A stretch of DNA of 64,000 nucleotides from a bacterium (lineage in GTDB: Bacteria; Electryoneota; RPQS01), in the NCBI GenBank assembly GCA_026394155.1, contig JAPKYT010000117.1, positions 1,993-65,992 on the forward strand. Reading direction: 5' to 3'. The stretch's first letter is position 1, and every line of letters starts with the position of its first letter. A model generated the notes under the pieces. The model did not search any database. It was not told where the DNA came from and was given only the letters and a program-made list of their open reading frames with translations. Shown here piece by piece: positions 1,480 through 63,778 of this stretch. A program made the translations under genes and the position numbers.

Positions 1480-2016
1480 TCAAGAGGAAGGCGGGATCGG
1501 GCTGACCGGGAGGGCGAATTCGAAGACGGCTCCTTGACCTTCCGTCGAGCGCACGCGCACGGTTCCACCGTGAGCTTCGACAAAAGATCGCACCATCGCC
1601 AGCCCGAGGCCGGTGCCCTTTCCTTCGGGCTTGGTGGTGAAGTACGGCTGGAAAATGCGGTCCTGGAGGTGGCGCGGAATGCCGGGGCCGGTGTCTTCCA
1701 CGAAACCGACAACGGCACTCTGTTCCGAATCGTAGCGCGTGCCCACCGTGAGGCAGCCTCTTCCCTGCGGCTGCATGACGTCGGCGGCGTTCAGAATGAG
1801 ATTCATGAAGACCTGCAACAACAAGGCCGGGTCGGCGGACACCACCGGCAACTGCGACCGATCATCTGCGCGGAGCGCGCAATTTTCTCTCCCGACAGGG
1901 ATGCATTCTGCTGCATGGCGTGTTGGATGAGCTGCGCCTGTCCGAGCAGCGGCGAGAGCGCATTGTTGATCTCGTGGGCCACACCGCCGGCCAAATCCGC
2001 GGCCACCGCCCGGCAT
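1480..2016 (-). CDS. Sensor histidine kinase C-terminal ATPase (HATPase_c) fragment. It is out of frame with the upstream sensor/HisKA ORF.
   Basis: N-box LLLQVFMNLILNAADV, G1 box VEDTGPGIP and G2 box GKGTGLGLAMV are present. The ORF overlaps the 3' end of ORF 1803..3713 in another frame. Confidence 0.6.
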   Translation of the reverse strand: MPGGGRGFGRRCGPRDQQCALAAARTGAAHPTRHAAECIPVGRENCALRADDRSQLPVVSADPALLLQVFMNLILNAADVMQPQGRGCLTVGTRYDSEQSAVVGFVEDTGPGIPRHLQDRIFQPYFTTKPEGKGTGLGLAMVRSFVEAHGGTVRVRSTEGQGAVFEFALPVSPIPPSS

Positions 2017-3713
2017 TCTTGCGTGAGAATGGCCTGATGCAGTTCGTAATTCGCCAGCGCGGTACCGGCCAGAGAGGAGAGTGTGGCCAGGAGCCGCAGG
2101 TCGCGGGCGCTGTAGGGTGCGTTGCTGGATTTCCGCCCTAACAGCAGCCAGCCCGCAACCCGGTCGGCGAAGGCGAGCGGCACGATCACTTCATAGCCCA
2201 GCGAGGAGAGCCTGTCCTCCGGCCCAAGCGCGCGCGGCTCCAAGGCGGCAGTGGTTTCCAAGTCGCCGGAGTGCCATGCCGACGGCATTAGTGGAGCCGC
2301 CTGCGGAGGCGCAACCCACGCTCTACTTGCGTCGTGGATCAGCAGCGTGGCTCTCTCAAGGTGCAAGAGCGCCGGCAGCTCCGCCGTGAGAATGCGCACG
2401 ATATCGGTCTCAAACGCCGAACCGGAAAGCCGCCGCGAGAGGTTGCGGAGAGAGCGCTCGAAGTCGAACCAGTCACCATAATAGAGGTGATCCACCAGCC
2501 AGCGCACACGATCCACCAAGGCCGTAGCCGCGAGCAGCGCCAGAAAACCTGCGGCCAGACTGAGCACCACCAAAGAGACCGGGTCGCCATGCTTGAGGAA
2601 TCCTACGCCGACAGCAGTCATGACCGTGACCACACACATCAGAAGCACCGCCGTAATGGCATAGATGATGGTGCGCGACAACGTCCACTCTACTTTCAGC
2701 ATGCGGAAGGAAGTCACGGCCATCCCCCAGCCAATGGGCGCAATAAGCATGGCGGCCATGGCCGCCCCGACAGGCAGCAGCGGCGACCCGCCGAAAACCA
2801 CCGGCAGCTTGTAGAGGAAAATGAAAGGGCCGACACCCAGCAAGGTGCACTGCAGAAGCCAGCGGTTGCGCGTCTTCTCCGCGGTTCCCGCCGGGCGCAC
2901 CGCCATCCACGCCATCCACGTCACCGCCACCGCGACGTACACGACAAGGAGCGCCCCGAATCCCTCAAAAAAACCCTCGCTGAAAAGGGTGATCCAGAAA
3001 CGGCTGTGGGTGGCGCGGGCCATCACGTACGCAAAGGTCAACACCGCCCAGAGGAGAACGACCGGCACGCGCCAAGTCAGCGGCACGAAGCGGAGCGGCC
3101 GGTGGATAGCACGCGTCAGCCGCCACAGGAAATCGAGAAAGGCGGCGGGCACGAGCACATAGCTGCCCAGCCACACGAGAAGATAGGCGTCAGCCGCCAG
3201 CGGCGGCGTGAGAACGTTCTGTCCGTGATAGAGCAGAATGGAGATGCCCAGCGTCACGTTCAGGCGGAGAAAGGCGCGCACCGCCGCATTTTTCGGCGCG
3301 CGCCACCAGACAAAAAGACCCAGGACGATGAAGGCCAAGCCGACGATCTGATTGAGGAAAACCGTGCCCAGCGGAATGCGCGCCACCGTCTTCACGGGCG
3401 TCATCAGGATGGAGTCGGCCCGTCGCAATGTCAGGCTCAGCGTCTGTGCCGGTCTGACAAAAAGAGTCAGCCACCAGAGTTCGGCCGTGCCGGAGACCGC
3501 GTCAGGGCCGATTCGCACCAGCACATCTCCAGCCTGCACATCACCGGCTTCCGTCGCGAATCTCGGGTCAACAGCGGCCACGGTCACACCGGCGTGACGC
3601 TGCTCCCATCGAACGGGCAGATCGCGCCACCGCAGCAGATTCCAGGTGCCCGCCGCCAAAGCCGCCGCGGCGAGCGCGATCAGCCCCATGCGTGTGGCCC
3701 ACGGCTTGGACAC
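1803..3713 (-). CDS. Sensor histidine kinase N-terminal part: multi-TM sensor, GAF-like region and HisKA H-box. It is probably disrupted, see finding.
   Basis: About 10 predicted TM helices are followed by the H-box AGGVAHEINNALSPLLGQAQLI. The tail (RSCRWCPPTRPCCCRSS) is nonsense and consistent with a frameshift. Only about 33 codons separate the H-box from the N-box found in the other frame. Confidence 0.6.
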   Translation of the reverse strand: MSKPWATRMGLIALAAAALAAGTWNLLRWRDLPVRWEQRHAGVTVAAVDPRFATEAGDVQAGDVLVRIGPDAVSGTAELWWLTLFVRPAQTLSLTLRRADSILMTPVKTVARIPLGTVFLNQIVGLAFIVLGLFVWWRAPKNAAVRAFLRLNVTLGISILLYHGQNVLTPPLAADAYLLVWLGSYVLVPAAFLDFLWRLTRAIHRPLRFVPLTWRVPVVLLWAVLTFAYVMARATHSRFWITLFSEGFFEGFGALLVVYVAVAVTWMAWMAVRPAGTAEKTRNRWLLQCTLLGVGPFIFLYKLPVVFGGSPLLPVGAAMAAMLIAPIGWGMAVTSFRMLKVEWTLSRTIIYAITAVLLMCVVTVMTAVGVGFLKHGDPVSLVVLSLAAGFLALLAATALVDRVRWLVDHLYYGDWFDFERSLRNLSRRLSGSAFETDIVRILTAELPALLHLERATLLIHDASRAWVAPPQAAPLMPSAWHSGDLETTAALEPRALGPEDRLSSLGYEVIVPLAFADRVAGWLLLGRKSSNAPYSARDLRLLATLSSLAGTALANYELHQAILTQECRAVAADLAGGVAHEINNALSPLLGQAQLIQHAMQQNASLSGEKIARSAQMIGRSCRWCPPTRPCCCRSS

Positions 3714-39239: not shown

Positions 39240-39608
39240 CGGAACGGGAGGACATTTTTACGAAACGGCACTAGAGTTGAAGAGTCACAAGGCCGCGTCG
39301 CGGCGGCGGGACGCGACTGACCAGAGCAGCAGCGTCAGAATCGTAAAGTAGATGGTGTCCAACACGTGCTCGAAATAGTGGGATGTCAACAGATAGAGCA
39401 CACTGAGAGTGGCGAATGGGGTCCCGCCGAGCCGGGTTAAGTCGTCGCAACCCGGCCGGAATTCCTGCTCCTTGTGTCATCCTGAAGGTCGCTCTTCCTG
39501 GCTTGCGGCCTGAAGGATCACCAAGAGTTTCCGAATTCGACTTTCTGTGATCCTTCACCCCCGTCGAAGACTTCGGGGGTTCAGGATGACGTGACCGCCG
39601 AGTAAACT

Positions 39609-54723: not shown

Positions 54724-56862
54724 ATGAAACCGTCTGTGCTCTCTTGGAGTCTGTCGGCTCTGCTCGCACTTTCGCTGCACGCAGGGGCGGAAGTCTGGGA
54801 ATGGCAAAACCCTCTGCCGGCAGGAAACAATCTGGAAGGCGTGGCCTTCACGGATTCGCTGACAGGGTGGATGGTCGGGGGATACGGCACCGTGTTCCAC
54901 ACGACCGACGGCGGTGTCACGTGGAACACGTGGAGTGTGCCCACGCTGGCGCATCTTCAAGCCGTCTCCTTTGCCGACGCTCGCAACGGCTGGATTGCCG
55001 GCTGGGACTGGGCCACGCAGCGCGGGATTATCCTTCACACCACCAACGGCGGCGCTTCGTGGACAACGCGCTCCTCGCAGTGGGATCCGTGGTGGGAAAA
55101 AGTCGTCTGCGTGGACAGTCTCTCGGCGTGGGCCTGCGGATGGGGAACCATTCTGCAAACCACCAACGGCGGAGCCACGTGGCTGACACGTTTCGATGAT
55201 CTCTACTTGTCTTTCTATGGGATGACGGTGGTTGACGACTCCAACGTATGGGTCGCCGGCTACGATGCGCTCTCTTCCGAAGGCTGCGTGCTGCGCACGA
55301 CCGACGGCGGAGTGAATTGGGATGTGCTCTGGCCGTCCGGCGCCACGTATCTTTGGGATGCCGCCTTTGTGAGTGCCGACACGGGCTTTGTCGTCAGCTT
55401 CTATGGACAACTTTTTCGAACCGGCGATGCTGGTCAAACATGGTCTGCCAGCGTGCCCGGATCGGGCGGCACTCTGGTCAGTGTGTGCTTTGCCGATTCC
55501 CGCAACGGTTGGCTCACTGGCACCAATGGCCGCGTGCTGCACACCACGGATGGGGGCGAGAGCTGGGCACAAACTTCCGTCGGCACGCATTGCTTCCTCA
55601 CCGATATCTGTTTCACCGATTCCACGCGCGGCTGGGCCTGCGGCGAGGGAAGCGGCCGCTTCCGTTCCACCGACGGTGGCCAAACGTGGTCTCGCTTCGG
55701 CAGCGGAGTTGACGCCACGCTCACGGGCGTTTCCTTTGCGGATGCATTCAACGGCTGGGCCGTCGGAGGCTACGGCGTGATCCTCCACACCACCAACGGC
55801 GGCCAAGCTTGGCAGCAGCAGGTCAGCGGCCTTCAAACTTGGATTTCCGATGTCGCCTTCGTGAATACTCTGACCGGTTGGGCCGTGGCCTATGGAACCA
55901 TCATTCACACCTCCGATGGGGGCGGTTCGTGGCAGGCTCAAATCAGCGGATTGAACGCCTCATTCAGCACTGTGGACTTCGCCGACACTCTTTCCGGATG
56001 GGCTGTCACCTACGACGCGACCATCTTCCACACGAGCGATGGCGGCGCGGTCTGGACTCCGCAAGCGAGCGGCGTCACGACGGAACTCTGGAACGTGGAT
56101 GCCGTGGACTCGCTGAATGCGTGGGCCGTTGGTTACGGTGGCACTTGGCCGTACACGGGATACCTGCTGCGAACCACCAACGGCGGCCAGGACTGGTCGG
56201 TTCAATCCACCCGCAACAACGTCTACTGGTTGGGTGTGAGTTTCGCCGAAAACGGCCACGGCTACATCGTCGGTGCCGACAATCAAAGAGGAAGTGGGGA
56301 GATCTGGCAAACTTACGACAACGGTCTGCATTGGTCCGCGATGCAATTGAACGCTCCCGGAACCGTCCTCTACAATGTGAAATGCCGCGGGGAAACCGCT
56401 GTGGTCGTCGGGCAATGGGGTTTCATTAAGCGAACGGCAGACGGCGGCGTGAACTGGTCGCGGGATACGAGCTACACGGACAACCTGCTGGAGGATGTGG
56501 CTCTCGCCGATGGCGGTCACGCCTGGGTCGTCGGCGAGGGAGGAACGATCCTGCACAGCCTTTCACCCAGCGCAGCGGAGTATCTCCCTCCCGCGGTGGC
56601 AAGCTCCTACGAACTGCGCGCCTTTCCCAATCCGTTCAACCCGCTGACCACCGTCACGGTGAGCCTGCCCGCTTCAGGCCGGGCCCGCGTGGATGTCTTC
56701 GACGTCACCGGCCGCCTGCGGCGAACACTGGTCAACACAGCGCTCTCCGGCGGCACGCACACCTTTGTCTTTGACGCGTCCGATTGGCCCAGCGGTGTTT
56801 ACTTCGCCCGTCTCACTGCCGGAGAGCGATCCCGCACGCTCAGGCTTCATCTCCTGAAGTAA
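54724..56862 (+). CDS. T9SS-sorted BNR/Ycf48-like beta-propeller repeat protein, inserted between psrB and psrC.
   Basis: Signal peptide. About 11 repeats of the [IVL][LF][HR]T[TS][DN]GGxxW[ST] type (BNR/Asp-box, Ycf48-like). CTD YELRAFPNPFNPLTTVTVSLP...SGVYFARLT...RLHLLK. Confidence 0.8.
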   Translation: MKPSVLSWSLSALLALSLHAGAEVWEWQNPLPAGNNLEGVAFTDSLTGWMVGGYGTVFHTTDGGVTWNTWSVPTLAHLQAVSFADARNGWIAGWDWATQRGIILHTTNGGASWTTRSSQWDPWWEKVVCVDSLSAWACGWGTILQTTNGGATWLTRFDDLYLSFYGMTVVDDSNVWVAGYDALSSEGCVLRTTDGGVNWDVLWPSGATYLWDAAFVSADTGFVVSFYGQLFRTGDAGQTWSASVPGSGGTLVSVCFADSRNGWLTGTNGRVLHTTDGGESWAQTSVGTHCFLTDICFTDSTRGWACGEGSGRFRSTDGGQTWSRFGSGVDATLTGVSFADAFNGWAVGGYGVILHTTNGGQAWQQQVSGLQTWISDVAFVNTLTGWAVAYGTIIHTSDGGGSWQAQISGLNASFSTVDFADTLSGWAVTYDATIFHTSDGGAVWTPQASGVTTELWNVDAVDSLNAWAVGYGGTWPYTGYLLRTTNGGQDWSVQSTRNNVYWLGVSFAENGHGYIVGADNQRGSGEIWQTYDNGLHWSAMQLNAPGTVLYNVKCRGETAVVVGQWGFIKRTADGGVNWSRDTSYTDNLLEDVALADGGHAWVVGEGGTILHSLSPSAAEYLPPAVASSYELRAFPNPFNPLTTVTVSLPASGRARVDVFDVTGRLRRTLVNTALSGGTHTFVFDASDWPSGVYFARLTAGERSRTLRLHLLK

Positions 56863-56879
56863 CGACACGCAAACCCGCC

Positions 56880-57854
56880 ATGCTCGAACTGACCACCACG
56901 CGGCACAACCCGATGATTGATCCCACCCTGCACGTCTGGGGGTGGGAGATTCCCGTCTATCTCTTTCTGGGCGGCATGGTGGCGGGAATCATGATCATTT
57001 CCGGCTACTTCCTCTTCAGTGGCCGTCATCGGGCGAGCACGCAATGCTCCTGTTTTCAAGTGCCGCTGGTGGGTATCGCTCTGCTCACGCTCGGCATGCT
57101 CGCTCTCTTCCTCGATCTTGAGCACAAACCATTCACTTGGCGGCTCTACACCACCTTCGAGATCAAATCGCCCATGTCGTGGGGTGCGTGGATTCTCGTC
57201 TTGGTCTATCCCGCGCTGGCCGCCGTGGCCGCACTGCGCATTCCCGAATCGTGGCGGATCGCTTTCAAAGGCCGGCTTGCACGTCTCGTCTTGTTCTCCG
57301 AGCGAATCCGCGGGAGCGCTGCTGCCACCAAAACCATCGGCATCGTCAACATGTTGCTGGGCGGGCTCTTGGGCATCTACACCGGTGTGCTTCTGAGCGC
57401 TCTGGGCGCGCGGCCTCTGTGGAGCAGTTCCATTCTGTGGCTGCTGTTTGTCGTGTCGGGACTCTCATCCGCCGCCGCCTTCGCGCACATGATCGCCCGC
57501 GACCCGTACGAGCGCGTGCTGCTGGCGAAAGCGGACAACGGTTTTCTGATTTTCGAGCTGTTCGTTTTCGCGCTGTTTTTCATCGGTCTGGCAAGCACGA
57601 GTGAGGCTCACCTGCGCGCGGCGCAGCTTCTGCTCGGCGGCGCGTTCGCACCGGCCTTCTGGGTTTTTGTGATCGGGCTCGGCATTATCATTCCGCTCAT
57701 TGTGCAGCTCATGGCCGTGAATGGCAAAATTCCCCACACTCCGATGGCACCGATTCTGGTCATGGGCGGCGGACTCGCTCTGCGCTTTGTGATCGTCTCC
57801 GCCGGCCAGTTCAGTCACTGGATGAACGCGCACGGCCTGCCCCTGCCGTTCTAA
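56880..57854 (+). CDS. psrC: Polysulfide reductase NrfD/PsrC-type integral membrane anchor subunit.
   Basis: 8-TM NrfD-like profile with the N-terminal segment HVWGWEIPVYLFLGGMVAG. Start at MLELTTT (56880), 18 nt after the BNR-protein stop. Confidence 0.8.
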   Translation: MLELTTTRHNPMIDPTLHVWGWEIPVYLFLGGMVAGIMIISGYFLFSGRHRASTQCSCFQVPLVGIALLTLGMLALFLDLEHKPFTWRLYTTFEIKSPMSWGAWILVLVYPALAAVAALRIPESWRIAFKGRLARLVLFSERIRGSAAATKTIGIVNMLLGGLLGIYTGVLLSALGARPLWSSSILWLLFVVSGLSSAAAFAHMIARDPYERVLLAKADNGFLIFELFVFALFFIGLASTSEAHLRAAQLLLGGAFAPAFWVFVIGLGIIIPLIVQLMAVNGKIPHTPMAPILVMGGGLALRFVIVSAGQFSHWMNAHGLPLPF

Positions 57855-57928
57855 ACTCGCTATGATAAGCAATGAACGCCGTGGTGGCTCTCCCGAGCCG
57901 CAATGGCGGATTCGAGGAAGGTCCTGAA

Positions 57929-58489
57929 ATGTCCATATTGTCGAGTGCGGCGGCGATTGCGGATCACGCGCTGCACAAGGAACGTCCCTACTGGCACCCG
58001 TACGCCGCCGGAATCGGTCTGGGTCTCGTCCTTCTCCTTGCCTTCGTGATTGTGGGCCGCGGCCTCGGTGCGTCGGGCGCGTTCTCGTCGCTGGTGGCCA
58101 CCGTGGTGCACGCGGTTGCGCCCGCGCACGCAGAGAGCAATGCGTTCTACGGCGAATATCTGGGCGACGGCTCGAAAAGTCCGCTTCTCGATTGGCTTGT
58201 GTTTGAGGTCATGGGCGTGTTTGCCGGTGGATTCTTGTCGGGAGCGCTGGCCGGTCGCCTTCGCATCACCGTGGAAAAGGGCCCGCGCATTTCGACGCCG
58301 GGTCGCCTGATGCTCGCCTTCCTCGGCGGATTCATCATGGGCGTGGGTGCGAAGCTGGCGCGCGGTTGCACCAGCGGACAGGGGCTAACCGGCGGCGCTC
58401 TGCTCAGCGTGGGTGGTTGGGCCTTTATGCTCTGTGTTTTCGCCGGAGCCTATGCGACGGCTTACTTCGTGCGGAGGCAGTGGATATGA
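57929..58489 (+). CDS. YeeE/YedE family sulfur-compound transporter, first half-size gene.
   Basis: Conserved YeeE/YedE motif GCTSGQGLTGGALLSVGGW. An alternative upstream start lies at 57872. Confidence 0.75.
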   Translation: MSILSSAAAIADHALHKERPYWHPYAAGIGLGLVLLLAFVIVGRGLGASGAFSSLVATVVHAVAPAHAESNAFYGEYLGDGSKSPLLDWLVFEVMGVFAGGFLSGALAGRLRITVEKGPRISTPGRLMLAFLGGFIMGVGAKLARGCTSGQGLTGGALLSVGGWAFMLCVFAGAYATAYFVRRQWI

Positions 58490-59082
58490 GCGCGCCCTTC
58501 TACAAGTATGGTCTCTTCGGCGATGAAATCAGCCTCGTCATGGCTTTCCTCATCGGCATCGGCTTCGGTTTCTTTCTCGAACGCGCCGGTTTCGGCAATG
58601 CGCGCAAGCTGGCCGCGCAGTTCTACCTTTACGACATGACCGTCTTCAAAGTCATGTTCACGGCCATCGTCACCGCTATGATCGGGCTCTATTATCTCTC
58701 CGTTCTCGGGTTTGTGGACCTGTCTCTGGTTTACCTCAGCCCGACTTTCCTCTTGCCGCAAGTGATCGGCGGCCTCATTCTCGGTGTCGGTTTCGCGGTG
58801 GGAGGTTACTGTCCCGGAACTTCGGCGGTCTCGGCGGCCACCGGCAGACTCGACGGCATGGTGTTCCTGCTTGGAATCGTTGCGGGCATCTTCTTTTTCG
58901 GTGAGGTCTTTCCCGCTATCGAGTCGTTCTACACGACGACGCCTATGGGATCCGTCACCTTGCCACAGCTCTTCGGTGTTTCCTACGGTTTGATCCTCTT
59001 TCTTGTCGTGCTCATGGCGCTCGGCGGTTTCCTGCTTGCAAGCTGGGCGGAAAAGAAGTTCGCACACCTTCGGCCGGAGTGA
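58486..59082 (+). CDS. YeeE/YedE family sulfur-compound transporter, second half-size gene.
   Basis: Motif GGYCPGTSAVSAATG. The ATG overlaps the upstream TGA (ATGA), i.e. translationally coupled halves. Confidence 0.75.
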   Translation: MSAPFYKYGLFGDEISLVMAFLIGIGFGFFLERAGFGNARKLAAQFYLYDMTVFKVMFTAIVTAMIGLYYLSVLGFVDLSLVYLSPTFLLPQVIGGLILGVGFAVGGYCPGTSAVSAATGRLDGMVFLLGIVAGIFFFGEVFPAIESFYTTTPMGSVTLPQLFGVSYGLILFLVVLMALGGFLLASWAEKKFAHLRPE

Positions 59083-59085
59083 GCA

Positions 59086-59742
59086 ATGAAGAATCCGCTG
59101 ACCAATCTGAACTGGAAACAGCGCATCGCTCTACTTGCGCTCGTGCTGGGTCTGATCGCGCTCTTCGCCGGCAGTCCCTACGGTGGCAGCCGCGTGAGTC
59201 TCGACACCAAGGAACTGGCGCTGATGGTGCAAAACGAGCGCGATCATGTGAGCGTCGAGCAGCTTGCCGACTGGATCATTCAAGGTCGCTCCGGCTATCG
59301 GCTGCTGGATTGCCGAAGTGAGAAAGAATTCAACGAGTATCATATTCCCTCCGCCGAGTCCGCCCCGCTTTCATCCTTAAGCGATTATCCAATTCAGCGC
59401 AACGAGAAGATCATCCTCTATTCCGAAGGCGGCATTCACGCCTCGCAAGCATGGTTCCTGTTGGCGGCAAAGGGTTACAAGCATGTGTACCTGCTCACCG
59501 GGGGACTTGATGAGTGGCGCGAGAAAATCCTCTTTCCGGCAATTCCCGAAAACGCCGCCGCCGAACAACAAGCGCAGTTCACCAAGATGAAAGAGGTCAG
59601 CCGCTTCTTCGGCGGCACACCGCAAACCGGAGCGGCTTCCGAGCAGACAGCAGTGAAAAAAGAAATGCCCAAGCTCCCCGCCACTTCCGCCGGGACTCCT
59701 GCGCCGACCACGGGAGGCAAGAGGAAAAAGGAAGGCTGCTGA
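59086..59742 (+). CDS. Membrane-anchored rhodanese-like sulfurtransferase domain protein.
   Basis: N-terminal TM helix. Rhodanese fold with active-site loop ILYSEGGIHASQAWFLL (a Cys-less variant cannot be excluded; the region has CRSEKE upstream). Low-complexity C-terminal tail. Confidence 0.7.
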   Translation: MKNPLTNLNWKQRIALLALVLGLIALFAGSPYGGSRVSLDTKELALMVQNERDHVSVEQLADWIIQGRSGYRLLDCRSEKEFNEYHIPSAESAPLSSLSDYPIQRNEKIILYSEGGIHASQAWFLLAAKGYKHVYLLTGGLDEWREKILFPAIPENAAAEQQAQFTKMKEVSRFFGGTPQTGAASEQTAVKKEMPKLPATSAGTPAPTTGGKRKKEGC

Positions 59743-59819: not shown

Positions 59820-60672
59820 GGGGGCTTTTGTTATGTTGGGGCATGGTATTGTAGTGGAGTTTAGCCGAGGTTCAGATGCTGAAGAAGCAGGGTGGCAAGC
59901 CGACGGAACTGGAGTTTGTGTCGGTAGATGAGCTGGTTCCGGGCGATCATTTGCTGCGCAAGGTTGAGCGGGCGGTGGATTTTTCGTTCATTCGGGAACG
60001 GGTGGCCAGCGTCTACTGCGCGGACAACGGGCGTCCGACGATTGATCCGGTCATCCTGTTCAAGATGCTGTTCATCGGCTATCACCGCCCGACGCACCGC
60101 AAGGGCTATTTTTATAAGCGGGACTACACGTATTACCGGAAGTCCGATCATTACGTGTGTCCGGCGGGACAGGTCTTAACCTACTCAACCACGAACCGTT
60201 GGGGGTACCGCGAGTATAAATCGGATCCGGACTTGTGTCAATACTGTCCGTTGCTGGAGCAGTGCACGCAAAGCGCGAACCATGTCAAGGTGATCACCCG
60301 CCACGTGTGGGAACGCAGCAAGGAACGGATCGGCAAGCACCGACTGATGGAGCGCGGGAAAACCCTTTATCAGCATCGCAAAGAAACGGTGGAACGAAGC
60401 TTTGCCGACGCCAAAGAGCTGCACGGACATCGCTACGCCAAGATGCGCGGACTCCGCAAAGTCCAAGAGCAATCACTGCTGTGCGCCATCTGCCAAAACA
60501 TCAAGAAGATCGCCCTGATCGCGGGCGGTTCCTTGAAAAACCGTCTCGCGCGGCTTCTCAAAACCCTCTTTTCTGCTTTCCAACTCTACCCCTGCCTCTT
60601 ACCGGTCACGATCAGACCGCTTCCATCGCCCGACATCCCGTAAGAGCCTATGCCACTCCCAAAACAAACCCC
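59820..60672 (+). mobile_element. IS1182-family insertion-sequence remnant (deletion derivative) with imperfect ~26-bp terminal inverted repeats.
   Basis: Left end GGGGCTTTTGTTATGTTGGGGCATGG. The reverse complement of the right end is GGGGTTTGTTTTGGGAGTGGCATAGG, about 17 of 26 positions identical. It encloses a half-length transposase ORF. Confidence 0.45.
59876..60643 (+). CDS. Truncated IS1182/IS5-type transposase (InsH N-terminal domain + zinc ribbon + C-terminal DDE_Tnp_1_6 tail; the catalytic core is missing).
   Basis: N-terminus ELVPGDHLLRKVERAVDFSFIRERVASVYCADNGRPTIDPVILFKMLFIGY (DUF772). CPAGQVL...CQYCPLLEQCTQS zinc ribbon. C-terminus YQHRKETVERSFADAKELHGHRYAKMRGLRKVQEQSLLCAICQNIKKIA. 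Only 255 aa versus about 450-500 aa for intact family members. Confidence 0.75.
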   Translation: MLKKQGGKPTELEFVSVDELVPGDHLLRKVERAVDFSFIRERVASVYCADNGRPTIDPVILFKMLFIGYHRPTHRKGYFYKRDYTYYRKSDHYVCPAGQVLTYSTTNRWGYREYKSDPDLCQYCPLLEQCTQSANHVKVITRHVWERSKERIGKHRLMERGKTLYQHRKETVERSFADAKELHGHRYAKMRGLRKVQEQSLLCAICQNIKKIALIAGGSLKNRLARLLKTLFSAFQLYPCLLPVTIRPLPSPDIP

Positions 60673-60895
60673 GCCTTCACAGACGGGGTTTGTCAGCAAT
60701 CTGGGGCGACCCTCGCGGGCCGCCTCTTTGTTTCCGATTTCTCCCCCCGTTCACGGGGGGACAAAAGGGGGGTCTTATCTGTCATTCCGGACACCGCGTG
60801 CTCTTCGGTCTTGCGTGCGGGCGTCCGGAATCTCTACTCGGATCAGCGATCCCGCACGGCGGAAAAGGAAAGAGATGCCTGACTGGTGTCGAGTT

Positions 60896-61279
60896 CTATG
60901 GCCGGAACAACCGCTTCAAGTTATCCCAATTCCACCGGTAAAGCTGTCCCGCCCCTGGAACAGGCGTGGGATTCGCGTCTCGATAACCGATGATCTGGTA
61001 GACAGGTTTCTTCTCTTCTTGCGCTATCTTCACTTCCTTGATGACTCCTGGTGCTTTGTGGGTGGAGCCTCCGACCATAATGATCACAATGTCGGATCGC
61101 TTAATGCGCTCGCGTGCCTCGTCTTGCCAACTTCTTTGAGGCGCCGCTTCCTTCATTGACCAGTCCGCAACCTCGAAAGGCGAGTCCGGGAGTCTCGATT
61201 GGCCGATGATGAAATCCTTGAGGGCTTTGTCATTGTCGAAGTCAAAGCTGACAAAGACCTTCTTGCGTTCAACTGGCAT
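60896..61279 (-). CDS. TIR-like domain protein (DUF1863/ThsB-type).
   Basis: Start at MPVERKKVFVSFDFDNDKALKDF (61279). Downstream WS...W.DEARERIKRSDIVIIMVGGSTHKAPGVIKEVKIAQEEKKPVYQI fits the TIR-like (PF08937-type) pattern. 127 aa. The ORF-track N-terminal extension is rejected. Confidence 0.65.
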   Translation of the reverse strand: MPVERKKVFVSFDFDNDKALKDFIIGQSRLPDSPFEVADWSMKEAAPQRSWQDEARERIKRSDIVIIMVGGSTHKAPGVIKEVKIAQEEKKPVYQIIGYRDANPTPVPGAGQLYRWNWDNLKRLFRP

Positions 61280-61296
61280 TGTCTGTCTCCTGTGGC

Positions 61297-61782
61297 TTAC
61301 TTGCAGAGGAATGCAATCAGAGTGACGAGGATGATCGTTCCGGCGATGGGCCCGTAGATCCATCCGATTGTCTTGGACCAGCACGTGCTCAACCACGACT
61401 CAACCTGTTGTTCCTCATCCGCCAGTGTCTCTGGGAAGTCAGGGAAGGTGAACGGCAACGTGTCCATCGAGAATGGATTGTTGAGGAGTTCTTCTGGGTC
61501 GAGTGCGCGAACTGTGTCATAGAGCTTGCGGAACAAGCGCTCTTGCCGCAGGTAATAGGCGTCGAGCCCCCAGAACGTGAGGGCCGGAATCAGTGCAATC
61601 AGGAAATACCACTGATTTGCACCTTTTGCCGACAGAGCGAAGATTGCCGCGACCAGCGTGACAGCCCATCCTCGCAGTGCAAATGAATTCTGGGCGAGCC
61701 GTGAAATCACAGCTTGGATGAGTTCCAGATGTTTTACTTTCTCGTCCAACGGATTAGCCTCCTTGTCTTCGAGACCTCCCAT
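61297..61782 (-). CDS. Small membrane protein: two TM helices in the N-terminal half and one C-terminal TM; no known domain.
   Basis: 161 aa from the ATG at 61782 (MGGLEDKEAN...). Helices WAVTLVAAIFALS, YFLIALIPALTFWGL, IYGPIAGTIILVTLIAFL. It lies 17 nt upstream of the TIR-like gene and 38 nt downstream of the DUF4041 gene. Confidence 0.55.
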   Translation of the reverse strand: MGGLEDKEANPLDEKVKHLELIQAVISRLAQNSFALRGWAVTLVAAIFALSAKGANQWYFLIALIPALTFWGLDAYYLRQERLFRKLYDTVRALDPEELLNNPFSMDTLPFTFPDFPETLADEEQQVESWLSTCWSKTIGWIYGPIAGTIILVTLIAFLCK

Positions 61783-61820
61783 AGACCCTGGCGGGGTTGG
61801 CCGTCCCGCGTGACGTGTAG

Positions 61821-63212
61821 TCAACTTAGCGAAGTTGGAAATCTGTCAGGCTCTTTCACCACTTCTTGTCCTGTTTGCTGTGCCGCTTGCTTCGCCCGAG
61901 CTTCTCTAATGGACTGGGTGGTTCTGTATTCTCTGGCTTCGGGAATCTTCGACAATTGAGTGTTTGGGTTCAGCTCATTCACAATTGCTTCAATCTCATC
62001 GATAGAAACACCAAAGAACTCATCTCTTGGATTCACCAAGTTCATCCGGCAATGCTCGAGTCGCTTATGCAATGCACTTTCAAGTTCCGGGGCATTTTCA
62101 GAGTAGATCATGGCATGCACATCAAAGTCGAACGGCACCGAAGCATCGCCAAGTTCGTTGACTCTCTCAAGTGGCTCTAATCGTCTTGTCATGCCTATCT
62201 TGTAGACGTGGTCACCAAAAGAGCCGATATTGGAGATGATGTAAATGTGGCCTAACTTAGTCAGTTGTGCTTGGGAGATGGCTCTCTCTTTTCGCTCGCT
62301 CGCCTTTTGAAGACTCTCCTCAAGCGCCTTGATCTTTTCATTCAGCGCATCGAGTTCCTTCCCCGTTGTGTTAGCAACCTCTGCTTTCGCTCTCTCCAAC
62401 GCCTTGTCATATCTTTCTTCCTCGTCCTCTGCCTCCTTTCGCGCTTTTTCCATTTCACGCAGTGCTTTTTCCTCTTCGCGCATTTGCTCCCTGATTCTTC
62501 TCTGCTCTTCTTTCTCTTGGTGAAGTTTCTCCTCAAGCTCGAATTCAAGCCTCAGCTCTTCTACCTTGAGATTGTAGTATTCCTTAGTCAGCACTATTTG
62601 ATGCGTCGTCCCCAGCTTGTTGAAGGCATCATACGCTCTTTCGATTCTCGCTTCCATGTTACCGATATTGCTCCAACTTACTTTCGCAATTGCCGCATCA
62701 CATTCTCCGTTAAACGCACGAAGCATCAACTTCGAGTAGTGCTTCGTCATCTTTGTCCCTTCCCCCTTGCTGTCACTCACTGTCCATTTCACTGCGCAGT
62801 ACGTAGCCATGTCATTCTTGATGAGCTGCTTCTGGCGTTCCCTTATGGCTTCGATGTTCTTCTTGAACTCATCCGAAGTACCGAAGTCGTAGTGGGGTTT
62901 GTAGAGGCCATATGAAATGTTCTCCAAGTTCTCTTCGAGTACTGAAATCTCCGCGAGTAAGTTCTCATAGATAACTCGCTTGTTTGAGTAATCTTGATTT
63001 AGCTGCGCTTTCTGTGTCTCATGATCCGCCTTAAGCCGCTCTATGGTCTGGTTAGTGCTTGCGAGCTCATCATTTCGTCTTGCCAAGGCGGCGTCAATAT
63101 CAATGATATCTTTGTACTCGTCTTTGAGTTTCTTTGCTTGCAGAGTCTGCTTGATGGATAGGAATAGGAGCAAGCCGATCAGCGCTGCTGAGAAGACAAG
63201 AGCTATTGTCAT
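61821..63212 (-). CDS. DUF4041 + T5orf172 (GIY-YIG-like) domain protein with an N-terminal TM helix and a long coiled-coil.
   Basis: N-terminal TM (IALVFSAALIGLLLFLSI). DUF4041-like block (CAVKWTVSDSKGEGTKMTKHYSKLMLRAFNGECDAAIAKVSWSNIGNMEARIERAYDAFNKLG). Glu/Lys/Arg-rich coiled-coil. T5orf172-like block (GHIYIISNIGSFGDHVYKIGMTRRLEPLERVNELGDASVPFDFDVHAMIYSENAPELESALHKRL...FFGVSIDEI). GGAGG RBS 8 nt upstream. Confidence 0.8.
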   Translation of the reverse strand: MTIALVFSAALIGLLLFLSIKQTLQAKKLKDEYKDIIDIDAALARRNDELASTNQTIERLKADHETQKAQLNQDYSNKRVIYENLLAEISVLEENLENISYGLYKPHYDFGTSDEFKKNIEAIRERQKQLIKNDMATYCAVKWTVSDSKGEGTKMTKHYSKLMLRAFNGECDAAIAKVSWSNIGNMEARIERAYDAFNKLGTTHQIVLTKEYYNLKVEELRLEFELEEKLHQEKEEQRRIREQMREEEKALREMEKARKEAEDEEERYDKALERAKAEVANTTGKELDALNEKIKALEESLQKASERKERAISQAQLTKLGHIYIISNIGSFGDHVYKIGMTRRLEPLERVNELGDASVPFDFDVHAMIYSENAPELESALHKRLEHCRMNLVNPRDEFFGVSIDEIEAIVNELNPNTQLSKIPEAREYRTTQSIREARAKQAAQQTGQEVVKEPDRFPTSLS

Positions 63213-63248
63213 TGTGTGAATCCTCCGACCGCAGATTTGCCTCGCACT

Positions 63249-63290
63249 AAAAAAGGCCAGAGTTCTGCACTCTGACCTTTATTCAGTCTT
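63249..63290. terminator. Bidirectional rho-independent terminator.
   Basis: A6, then stem ggccagagt/actctgacc (one mismatch) with loop tctgc, then UUUAUUCAGUCUU. The A-tract gives a U-tract on the opposite strand. Confidence 0.55.
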
Positions 63291-63552
63291 GGCGAGTCTG
63301 GAAGAAAATGCTGAAAGTCTGAGAGACAGATGGAAGATCTGCGCTCATGATTTGTTCCCGCGGTCCTTGGGCAGACGATGCAACGTGCAGCTTGGCCGCG
63401 TTTTCGGACGAGCTTCCCACCCAGATGTCGAGGTCTTTCGTGAATCGCGGCTCGCCGTACTTCATGACCGCGTATCCCCCCACGATCAGATACTCAACGC
63501 CCGCCTCGTTTAAGCACTGTAACGGTTCTTTGAAAGGCGGGCTTTCTTCCAT
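63283..63552 (-). CDS. Small nucleotidyltransferase-like protein (possible toxin-antitoxin/defence-associated NTase).
   Basis: LNEAGVEYLIVGGYAVMKYGEPRFTKDLDIWV resembles the core of small minimal nucleotidyltransferase proteins. 89 aa. Confidence 0.4.
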   Translation of the reverse strand: MEESPPFKEPLQCLNEAGVEYLIVGGYAVMKYGEPRFTKDLDIWVGSSSENAAKLHVASSAQGPREQIMSADLPSVSQTFSIFFQTRQD

Positions 63553-63778
63553 GTTTGAGTTCCTCGGTCACGACCACCATTTCCCATGCGGCGCGAAAGA
63601 TCGCTTCGTCACCCTGTTCCTGCCAGAAGGCAATGTCAAAATCCCGGTCGGGAAAACTGCCCTTGACCAGCCGGGTTTTCCAAACGGGTTTCTGATCGTT
63701 CTTCACAAGGGAGCGTCCGTTTTTCATCAAATTCACAGTGTCAGTCATCAATATACTCAAGGACAAAGGGATTGTCAA
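63494..63778 (-). CDS. Hypothetical small protein upstream of, and overlapping, the NTase-like gene.
   Basis: 94-aa ORF (…DFDIAFWQEQGDEAIFRAAWEMVVVTEELKHGRKPAFQRTVTVLKRGGR). No domain recognised. It overlaps the next ORF by about 59 nt. Confidence 0.25.
   Translation of the reverse strand: MTIPLSLSILMTDTVNLMKNGRSLVKNDQKPVWKTRLVKGSFPDRDFDIAFWQEQGDEAIFRAAWEMVVVTEELKHGRKPAFQRTVTVLKRGGR

Follow-up and report, generated by a model that had tools for sequence, protein, structure and literature searches.

The question raised by this locus is whether three closely spaced genes make up a single anti-phage system of a new kind, as the initial annotation proposed, or whether they belong to systems that are already described. 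Within the window, the whole 64,000-nucleotide stretch of bacterial DNA that was analysed, positions 60896-63212 hold three intact ORFs, all on the minus strand in the ORF listing of the window. In the order in which they would be read, gene 1 codes for a SNIPE homologue, gene 2 for a ThsF-like protein, and gene 3 for a TIR protein. The genes and their immediate flanks are as follows.

59876..60643, plus strand: fragment of an IS1182-family transposase, one edge of the island (NCBIfam, Pfam)
60896..61279, minus strand: gene 3, thsB, short ThsB-type TIR, 127 aa from ATG (Pfam, PADLOC)
61297..61782, minus strand: gene 2, thsF-like effector gene, 161 aa from ATG (homology, PADLOC PDC-M50A)
61821..63212, minus strand: gene 1, SNIPE / PD-lambda-1 homologue, 463 aa (PADLOC, Pfam)
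63283..63778, minus strand: remnants of a DUF2204-type nucleotidyltransferase gene and of its small upstream partner (Pfam)

With ATG starts, the gaps measure 38 nt between genes 1 and 2 and 17 nt between genes 2 and 3, exactly as first described; the mechanical ORFs are longer, with gene 2 reaching TTG 61824 and gene 3 reaching GTG 61396. For each of the three proteins, homologues at E below 1e-20 number in the hundreds to thousands, and the genes are therefore not chance ORFs. No NCBIfam model matched any of the three proteins. The island that holds SNIPE and thsF-thsB is flanked by IS fragments and is AT-richer, as had been noticed from codon usage, with GC contents of 0.47 (SNIPE gene), 0.54 (thsF), and 0.53 (thsB) versus 0.61 for positions 1-59800 of the window. 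The IS remnant and the NTase-like pair initially seen beside the block were also recovered. The former is an IS1182 fragment, which scores 218 bits against NCBIfam transpos_IS1182, under the 270-bit cut-off, with its best stretch at profile positions 347-486 of 488, and which matches Pfam DDE_Tnp_1_6 (E 7.5e-27). The latter contains a disrupted DUF2204-type nucleotidyltransferase gene: about 257 nt that are present in two related loci (L001 and L160) are missing from the window at about 63385-63388, and the remaining 89-aa ORF reaches only 18.4 bits for DUF2204, compared with 24.4 bits (cut-off 20.3) for the intact 155-aa gene of L001. This remnant is context and is part of neither SNIPE nor Thoeris.

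Homology identifies gene 1 as a full-length homologue of SNIPE/PD-lambda-1, a single-gene system. SNIPE was characterised experimentally and defends E. coli as a single gene (Saxton et al., Nature 2026, PMC13190303). The window protein matches the PADLOC model PDLC03976 with an E of 1.1e-165 and 550 bits, its residues 28-446 covering profile positions 48-483 of 491, and it matches PDLC03977 with an E of 1.6e-160. The transmembrane helix, the DUF4041 block, and the T5orf172 domain that had been read from the letters were all borne out.

61971..62252, minus strand: T5orf172 / GIY-YIG-type nuclease domain of SNIPE, residues 321-414 (Pfam PF10544, PF13455)
62565..62732, minus strand: DUF4041 domain of SNIPE, residues 161-216 (Pfam PF13250)
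63153..63209, minus strand: N-terminal transmembrane helix of SNIPE, residues 2-20, TIALVFSAALIGLLLFLSI (hydropathy)

The helix has a Kyte-Doolittle mean of 2.57 across its 19 residues and is the sole such segment in the protein; one transmembrane helix within the first 70 residues is reported for 59% of SNIPE homologues (PMC13190303). [quoted passage not shown] The C-terminus scores above the Pfam cut-offs for both T5orf172 (PF10544, E 1.1e-16, 61.5 bits) and MUG113 (PF13455, E 5.2e-18, 65.8 bits), and the residues of the nuclease domain that are invariant in 32 homologues are G321, Y324, K338, G340, R343, R344, E353, E378, N391, and E398. E378 would be the catalytic Glu and would correspond to E414 of the E. 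coli protein, going by the profile offset only. The family is large, with at least 7998 homologues at E <= 1e-20 that have the same three Pfam domains. Similar to E. coli SNIPE, the window protein combines a single-pass N-terminal transmembrane helix, DUF4041, a long helix, and a C-terminal GIY-YIG/T5orf172 nuclease, and it has the conserved nuclease residues. Unlike E. coli SNIPE, it is encoded by an uncultured bacterium of ~61% GC; its N-terminal region, where SNIPE proteins vary most (PMC13190303), is short.

[quoted passage not shown] The reference for this assignment, located by an exact-sequence contig look-up of the validated ThsB, is a Bacillus protein of 141 aa. Its gene comes 13 nt after the gene of a ThsB that has 100% identity to the validated type V ThsB of B. 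thuringiensis DAR 81934. Residues 13-160 of the window protein are 44% identical to this effector (E 9e-40). A tblastn search of plasmids with the B. thuringiensis ThsB gave two best matches, in B. cereus and Priestia, without a transmembrane gene beside the TIR. The window ThsF matches all four PADLOC PDC-M50A models (best E 1.4e-44), and the Bacillus reference effector matches the same four in the same order. PDC-M50 is a computational candidate of PADLOC-DB v2.0.0, and a literature search found no mention of it by name; since the validated ThsF matches the same models, PDC-M50 corresponds to type V Thoeris.

The source paper labels the type V effector as Pfam PF10028, or DUF2270 (bioRxiv 10.64898/2025.12.03.692087). 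In our hmmscan, DUF2270 reached 14 bits on the window ThsF versus a cut-off of 25, and 22 of 46 family members gave weak matches (best E 0.0022). The reference Bacillus effector gave no DUF2270 match with hmmscan, and the label is therefore unusable as a criterion; it probably goes back to a cluster representative that was annotated with a more sensitive method. The ThsF family is currently not captured by Pfam.

The size first given for gene 2, 161 aa, holds for the ATG. However, the start is probably the TTG at 61749, which has AAGGAGG 8 nt upstream and gives a 150-aa product whose N-terminus agrees with the family consensus and with the public gene call; the gap to SNIPE is then 71 nt. The transmembrane nature of the protein was confirmed as three hydrophobic helices. 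Its AF2 monomer model (pLDDT 88.7) has three long helices at 11-54, 64-93, and 137-160, and the hydrophobic segments lie at about 39-55, 59-75, and 144-160. The residues conserved in the family are H18, R28, K37, R79, R82, R85, and R92, and the Arg and Lys residues among them are compatible with positively charged inter-protomer pockets of a ring. An insertion of ~12 residues (about 111-123), not found in the Bacillus effector, is common only to the closest relatives. In one-genome-per-species data, 308 ThsF relatives were found in bacteria and archaea, and ThsF homologues pair with at least 7 different TIR clades.

Gene 3 is predicted to encode a ThsB-type TIR that generates an NAD+-derived signal, in agreement with the initial annotation. 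The protein scores 31.5 bits for Pfam ThsB_TIR (PF08937, cut-off 21.2), so that the HMM check suggested at the outset placed both the TIR and the T5orf172 assignments above the Pfam cut-offs. It also matches ThsB in PADLOC (E 1.3e-07) and, weakly and below the ThsB models, PDC-M50B (E 6.6e-4). Its identity is 53% (E 9e-45) with IMG 2658236858, a TIR that Table S1 (bioRxiv 10.64898/2025.12.03.692087) carries as 'DUF2270 - Type V', and 37% with the ThsB of Pseudomonas sp. 1-7, a validated type IV protein. The thsB ATG has AGGAG 7 nt upstream.

61034..61036, minus strand: codon of ThsB Glu82, the predicted catalytic glutamate (alignment A3)

Alignment A3 of ThsB relatives has three invariant columns, F9, S41, and E82. 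E82 aligns with the Glu of WVRYEI in the ThsB of B. cereus MSX-D12 and with the Glu of KWEIQ in that of Pseudomonas sp. 1-7. The latter is E79 by residue count on the fragment in Table S1, and the E79Q substitution abolished defence by the Pseudomonas sp. 1-7 system. The single-sequence AF2 model of ThsB had a pLDDT of 48.6, and a search against PDB sequences gave only a weak TIR match, 8wcf (E 0.002).

Based on their sequences and arrangement, genes 2 and 3 are a type V Thoeris pair. In the window, thsF and thsB lie on one strand with a Shine-Dalgarno sequence ahead of thsB. At least 43 of 79 ThsF loci of bacterial and archaeal genomes have a TIR on the same strand no more than 600 nt away, ThsF adjoins the TIR in 41 of the 71 metagenome loci of the window's TIR clade, and the pair also occurs on plasmids of Priestia, Terribacillus, and Klebsiella. 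The type V Thoeris of B. thuringiensis DAR 81934 likewise consists of a same-strand TIR and a three-transmembrane protein of ~140-150 aa (Yirmiya et al., bioRxiv 10.64898/2025.12.03.692087), and Table S1 of that paper already pairs a ThsF effector with TIRs of the clade to which the window protein belongs. The two loci differ in gene order, as the effector precedes the TIR in the window and follows it in Bacillus, both orders being found in the family. They also differ in their TIRs, the 127-aa window protein belonging to another clade than the 252-aa Bacillus ThsB.

The proposal that the three genes form one module was not upheld by the comparison of loci. SNIPE was found in none of the 79 other ThsF loci (within 8 kb or less) and in none of the 71 loci of the window's TIR clade (within 5 kb or less). 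Conversely, two SNIPE relatives, L161 (85% identity) and L162 (72%), occur without the ThsF-ThsB pair; the DNA homology of L161 to the window ends at 61837, 16 nt before the SNIPE stop codon, and its SNIPE gene is frameshifted. Two unannotated genes of 175 aa each come after the SNIPE gene of a relative with 75% identity (P0243), which might count against the separation of SNIPE from its neighbours. Conservation of the trio as a neighbourhood in other genomes, which the single-module reading would predict, came down to one metagenome contig, L160, in which the block is 92.5% nucleotide-identical and the downstream flanks are different. Because L160 carries a near-identical copy of the same island, its trio reflects shared ancestry and not independent conservation. 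All three L160 proteins have 92-97% amino-acid identity to those of the window, despite ~7.5% nucleotide difference.

The homology, the domains, the conserved catalytic residues, the repeated occurrence of the ThsF-TIR pair, and the lack of SNIPE at the 79 ThsF and 71 TIR-clade loci are observations. On these grounds we consider it very probable that SNIPE and type V Thoeris, both described before, are independent anti-phage systems that lie side by side in this region. The mechanism of each can be outlined from the cited experiments on homologues. As in E. coli, the N-terminal helix would anchor SNIPE in the inner membrane, its DUF4041 would engage the incoming phage DNA and tape-measure complex, and its GIY-YIG domain would cut the phage DNA during genome injection, a defence that would be direct and non-abortive. 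ThsB, with Glu82 as its catalytic residue, would sense infection and make an isomer of cyclic ADP-ribose from NAD+. ThsF, which probably assembles into a ring-shaped homo-oligomer, would take up this signal in positively charged pockets and, once bound to it, would breach the membrane, so that abortive infection would stop phage replication.

This logic of a TIR signal generator and a small transmembrane effector had been put forward from the sequence and agrees with findings made since on the homologous system. A small-molecule signal that triggers a membrane-disrupting effector is also the scheme of the TM-Macro proteins of type II Thoeris, the SLATT proteins of type VII Thoeris, and the transmembrane effectors of CBASS and Pycsar. 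Unlike the type II and type VII effectors, neither gene 2 nor the 46 family members have a Macro or SLATT domain; no SLATT family was among the Pfam matches at E <= 1 for the window protein and its 46 homologues, and a SLATT or Macro relationship of ThsF was rejected. Unlike CBASS and Pycsar, the block has no cyclase gene, and gene 2 has sequence homology to ThsF only.

The three genes share a strand and a simple scan of the minus strand found no terminator-like site between them; they may thus be co-transcribed, which would imply some functional coupling. A stronger version of this idea is that they work as one integrated co-transcribed system, with SNIPE, for instance, as a sensor or second effector of the TIR signal. 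The short gaps, the shared strand, the result of the terminator scan, and the retention of the whole block at 92.5% nucleotide identity in front of different downstream flanks in L160 all fit this reading. We nevertheless regard it as very unlikely, as SNIPE by itself defends E. coli (PMC13190303) and ThsB and ThsF alone defend B. subtilis (bioRxiv 10.64898/2025.12.03.692087). In addition, the 79 ThsF loci and the 71 TIR-clade loci are devoid of SNIPE, the pair is missing beside the 85% and 72% SNIPE relatives, the GC of the SNIPE gene (0.47) differs from that of the pair (0.53-0.54), and the sole other trio locus carries the same island in nearly identical form. It is conceivable, though doubtful, that SNIPE and Thoeris are transcribed together and act as a layered unit, with cleavage at phage entry and abortive infection as a backup.

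Genes 2 and 3 could also be read as non-signalling, with the TIR as a toxic NAD+-depleting effector and the transmembrane protein as a membrane sensor or anchor. The authors of the Thoeris survey allow for NADase-effector TIRs in non-verified configurations, and no sensor domain is evident in the TIR of gene 3, a stand-alone protein of 127 aa. However, the TIR of B. thuringiensis alone makes 3'cADPR upon infection, and external 3'cADPR is toxic only to cells with the B. thuringiensis system. The association of ThsF with at least 7 TIR clades is typical of an effector of a diffusible signal and not of a specific protein partner, and its conserved Arg, Lys, and His residues fit nucleotide binding; we give this reading little chance of being correct. 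Finally, the island could be decaying cargo whose intact ORFs are non-functional or unexpressed in the host. The ~257-nt deletion in the adjacent nucleotidyltransferase gene, the IS fragments that border the block, the frameshift in the related SNIPE gene of L161, and the failure to find a convincing sigma-70-like promoter directly upstream of SNIPE all point that way. Yet all three ORFs are full length and keep every family-invariant residue, thsF and thsB have canonical Shine-Dalgarno sequences, and the 92-97% protein identity of L160 at ~7.5% nucleotide difference is consistent with purifying selection, which makes decay highly improbable.

If SNIPE and type V Thoeris are taken as separate neighbours, the main value of the analysis lies in correct annotation, an apparent new three-gene system resolving into two known ones. 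All three proteins remain anti-phage defence proteins, by homology to SNIPE, ThsF, and ThsB, and the original interpretation thus stands for the defence genes and their domains but not for a single new system. The genes are further members of two described systems: the claim of an undescribed system is contradicted by the matches to the PD-Lambda-1 and PDC-M50A models, by the identity of gene 2 to the type V effector, and by the 'Type V' label that related TIRs carry in Table S1. The analysis also documents that PDC-M50 corresponds to type V Thoeris and that the ThsF family is widespread and associated with at least 7 TIR clades.

Among the two validated type V systems, activation by 3'cADPR was shown for that of B. 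thuringiensis only (bioRxiv 10.64898/2025.12.03.692087). The ThsB clade of the window is otherwise found in type IV (caspase) Thoeris, whose validated members signal by N7-cADPR, and the signal of the window Thoeris is therefore uncertain. The window ThsB is the same kind of short TIR as the one in the type IV system of Pseudomonas sp. 1-7 (Rousset et al., bioRxiv 10.1101/2024.10.24.620036). The two have the GQ..DSPFE, S.KE, and catalytic Glu motifs in common, and the window ThsB is 46% identical to another TIR listed under type IV. Unlike in type IV Thoeris, the partner of the window ThsB is the membrane protein ThsF, and the block has no gene for a caspase-like protease. It is conceivable, though rather doubtful, that the window ThsB makes N7-cADPR or another isomer and not 3'cADPR, its sub-clade being a distinct signalling variant of type V. 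If so, channels of the ThsF family would have evolved to respond to several of the signals that TIRs make. The sub-clade concerned is marked by the cytoplasmic insertion of ~12 residues in ThsF.

The three adjacent minus-strand genes that the initial annotation had put forward as a single undescribed anti-phage module are members of two known systems, SNIPE and type V Thoeris. The ORFs lie exactly where they had been noted, with gaps of 38 nt (genes 1-2) and 17 nt (genes 2-3) when ATG starts are used, and the module is AT-richer, as described (GC of 0.47, 0.54, and 0.53 for genes 1, 2, and 3 vs 0.61 for window 1-59800). The setting beside an insertion sequence remnant and nucleotidyltransferase-like sequence was also borne out.

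Features of the island and its borders
59876-60643: IS1182-family transposase fragment, one border of the block
60896-61279 (from ATG), minus strand: gene 3, thsB, 127-aa ORF
61297-61782 (from ATG), minus strand: gene 2, thsF-like, 161-aa ORF
61821-63212, minus strand: gene 1, SNIPE homologue, 463-aa ORF
within 63283-63778, minus strand: disrupted DUF2204-type nucleotidyltransferase gene, the other border

An alternative start for gene 2, TTG at 61749, has AAGGAGG 8 nt upstream and gives a 150-aa product whose N-terminus agrees with the family consensus and with the start that public annotation assigns on an identical contig. Because this start fits the Shine-Dalgarno spacing, the consensus, and the gene call, the gap between genes 1 and 2 is probably 71 nt. 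The thsB ATG is preceded by AGGAG 7 nt upstream. A minus-strand scan detected no terminator-like site between the three genes, so their co-transcription is possible; a hairpin with a T-run lies on the same strand between the nucleotidyltransferase remnant and SNIPE.

Gene 1 matches both PADLOC PD-Lambda-1 profiles over almost their whole length (E 1.1e-165 and 1.6e-160) and carries the Pfam domains DUF4041 (82.4 bits), T5orf172 (61.5 bits), and MUG113 (65.8 bits), a combination found in at least 7998 homologues with E <= 1e-20. A single hydrophobic helix spans residues 2-20, and the GIY-YIG-type residues Y324, K338, G340, R343, R344, E378, and N391 are invariant among 32 homologues of 54-92% identity. 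These features identify gene 1 as a SNIPE homologue. PD-lambda-1 is the former name of SNIPE, which was characterised in E. coli, where one gene suffices for direct, non-abortive defence; variability within the family is greatest in the N-terminal region (PMC13190303).

Gene 3 scores above the Pfam ThsB_TIR threshold (31.5 vs 21.2 bits) and matches the PADLOC ThsB models. An alignment to validated ThsBs has three invariant positions, among them E82, which falls opposite the catalytic Glu in the ThsB of B. cereus MSX-D12 and opposite the KWEIQ-motif Glu in that of Pseudomonas sp. 1-7. By our residue count from the Table S1 fragment (supplement of Yirmiya et al., bioRxiv 10.64898/2025.12.03.692087), the latter is E79, and an E79Q mutation in this protein abolishes defence. 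Gene 3 shares 37% identity with the type IV ThsB of Pseudomonas and 46% with a second TIR catalogued as type IV. It falls within a clade of short TIRs (cluster 2635319349) that is also entered many times as ‘DUF2270 - Type V’ in Table S1 (bioRxiv 10.64898/2025.12.03.692087), and one such entry there is 53% identical to gene 3 (E 9e-45). On these sequence grounds, gene 3 is a ThsB.

Type V Thoeris is defined as ThsB plus a three-TM effector, ThsF (Yirmiya et al., bioRxiv 10.64898/2025.12.03.692087). No Pfam model reached threshold for gene 2 (DUF2270, 14 bits vs a cut-off of 25), and weak DUF2270 matches occur in 22 of 46 members of its family; PADLOC places it in the candidate defence system PDC-M50A (E 1.4e-44). 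A reference effector was reached through the ThsB of the validated B. thuringiensis DAR 81934 type V system (bioRxiv 10.64898/2025.12.03.692087), by following its sequence, as given in Table S1, to a 100%-identical protein (P0121), its contigs, and the adjacent gene. The 141-aa protein encoded 13 nt downstream is 44% identical to gene 2 residues 13-160 (E 9e-40) and matches, in identical order, the four PDC-M50A models that gene 2 matches. The AF2 model of gene 2 (pLDDT 88.7, pTM 0.80) has three long helices coinciding with the hydrophobic segments. Gene 2 is thus a ThsF homologue. ThsF has been modelled as a channel-like ring of seven copies whose pockets are positively charged (bioRxiv 10.64898/2025.12.03.692087). 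The invariant or near-invariant residues of the gene 2 family include H18, R28, K37, the FWGLD motif at 70-74, R79, R82, R85, and R92, and would be compatible with a nucleotide-binding surface. The reference effector itself (L087 4773-5195) gave no DUF2270 match by hmmscan, though the paper labels it Pfam DUF2270; the sole match, with PF24838 (‘8xMP, octameric membrane protein family’), was weak (E 0.012). Plasmid-borne ThsF members are labelled ‘hypothetical protein’ by PGAP, and the family is in effect outside Pfam coverage.

The ThsF-TIR pair recurs widely. With one genome per species, we took the best 80 loci of 308 relatives and recovered the ThsF ORF in 79, at least 43 of which have a same-strand TIR ORF within 600 nt, usually in the order ThsF then TIR (38 vs 5). 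These TIRs belong to seven different clades. Of 66 proteins scanned (the window ThsB and 65 ORFs downstream of ThsF), 38 pass as ThsB_TIR, others pass as TIR_2, and two are nucleoside deoxyribosyltransferase-like. At the two loci of the last kind, in a cyanobacterium (L038 6946-7389) and a poribacterium (L049 8506-8967), the TIR is replaced by a nucleoside 2-deoxyribosyltransferase-like downstream partner, which may be an alternative signal-generating partner of ThsF. From the TIR side, ThsF adjoins the TIR, in either order, in 41 of 71 metagenome loci encoding relatives of the window ThsB, mostly 52-75% identical to it over most of its length. In others of these loci the neighbours are SIR2-SLOG (type I), extra TIRs, or a methylase. 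Some relatives of the window ThsB are followed by a second protein (L017 8438-9694; L094 4992-6092) in which a canonical TIR_2 is fused to a C-terminal ThsB TIR of the window type; these are multi-TIR Thoeris loci. The pair is also found on Priestia, Terribacillus, and Klebsiella plasmids, where the TIRs are relatives of the Bacillus type V ThsB.

A three-gene system would predict that SNIPE travels with this pair, but phmmer found it in 0/79 ThsF loci and 0/71 TIR-clade metagenome loci. Among the closest SNIPE relatives, the trio is kept only in the metagenome contig L160 (SNIPE 92%, ThsF 94%, and ThsB 97% amino-acid identity). L160 shares 92.5% nucleotide identity with window 60840-63387 and has different downstream flanks; it represents recent copying of this island rather than independent conservation. 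An 85% SNIPE relative (L161) is homologous to the window at the DNA level across 63317-61837 only, with neither thsF nor thsB at the locus. This gene (1842-3232) is frameshifted near its 3′ end, with three reading frames aligning to the window protein near the C-terminus, and is probably a pseudogene; it adjoins T9SS-sorted proteins resembling those in the window. Unrelated genes come after a 72% relative (L162), and two unannotated 175-aa genes after a 75% relative. Across the loci compared, SNIPE lies outside the conserved context of the pair. The initial proposal therefore holds for the presence of defence genes and for the TIR-plus-TM-effector logic, but not for a single or an undescribed system.

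By analogy with the cited experiments on homologues, SNIPE would be a first-line nuclease cutting phage DNA at entry, and the adjoining thsF-thsB pair would provide abortive-infection signalling, in which ThsB would convert NAD+ to a cyclic ADPR isomer that opens or assembles a ThsF membrane oligomer. In the B. thuringiensis system, the TIR makes 3′cADPR on infection, this molecule poisons cells that carry the system, and Tad1, a sponge protein binding 3′cADPR, substantially reduces defence (bioRxiv 10.64898/2025.12.03.692087). However, whether 3′cADPR is the signal of the window ThsB is uncertain, because a second validated type V system is not activated by it (bioRxiv 10.64898/2025.12.03.692087) and the short-TIR clade also serves type IV Thoeris, where N7-cADPR is the signal.

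Compared with L160 and with L001, a Logan contig otherwise identical, the window is without ~257 nt inside the nucleotidyltransferase gene at ~63385-63388, leaving two ORFs of 89 and 94 aa vs 155 aa; either a deletion at strain level or a difference in assembly could account for this. A C-terminal fragment of a DDE_Tnp_1 transposase lies at L001 2-331, just past the window end (beyond 64000), so that IS fragments bracket on both sides a ~4-kb island of nucleotidyltransferase, SNIPE, thsF, and thsB. Outside it, 54724-59742 (~60% GC) encodes multi-pass membrane proteins, a ~218-aa protein (59086-59742), and a 712-aa protein that is rich in repeats and looks secreted; these look like ordinary host genes, which would make the visible defence island only ~4 kb. 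On L160, 39 nt (3602-3640) in the region downstream of the copied island match a distant part of the window (39424-39462) at 97% identity and may be a short dispersed repeat.
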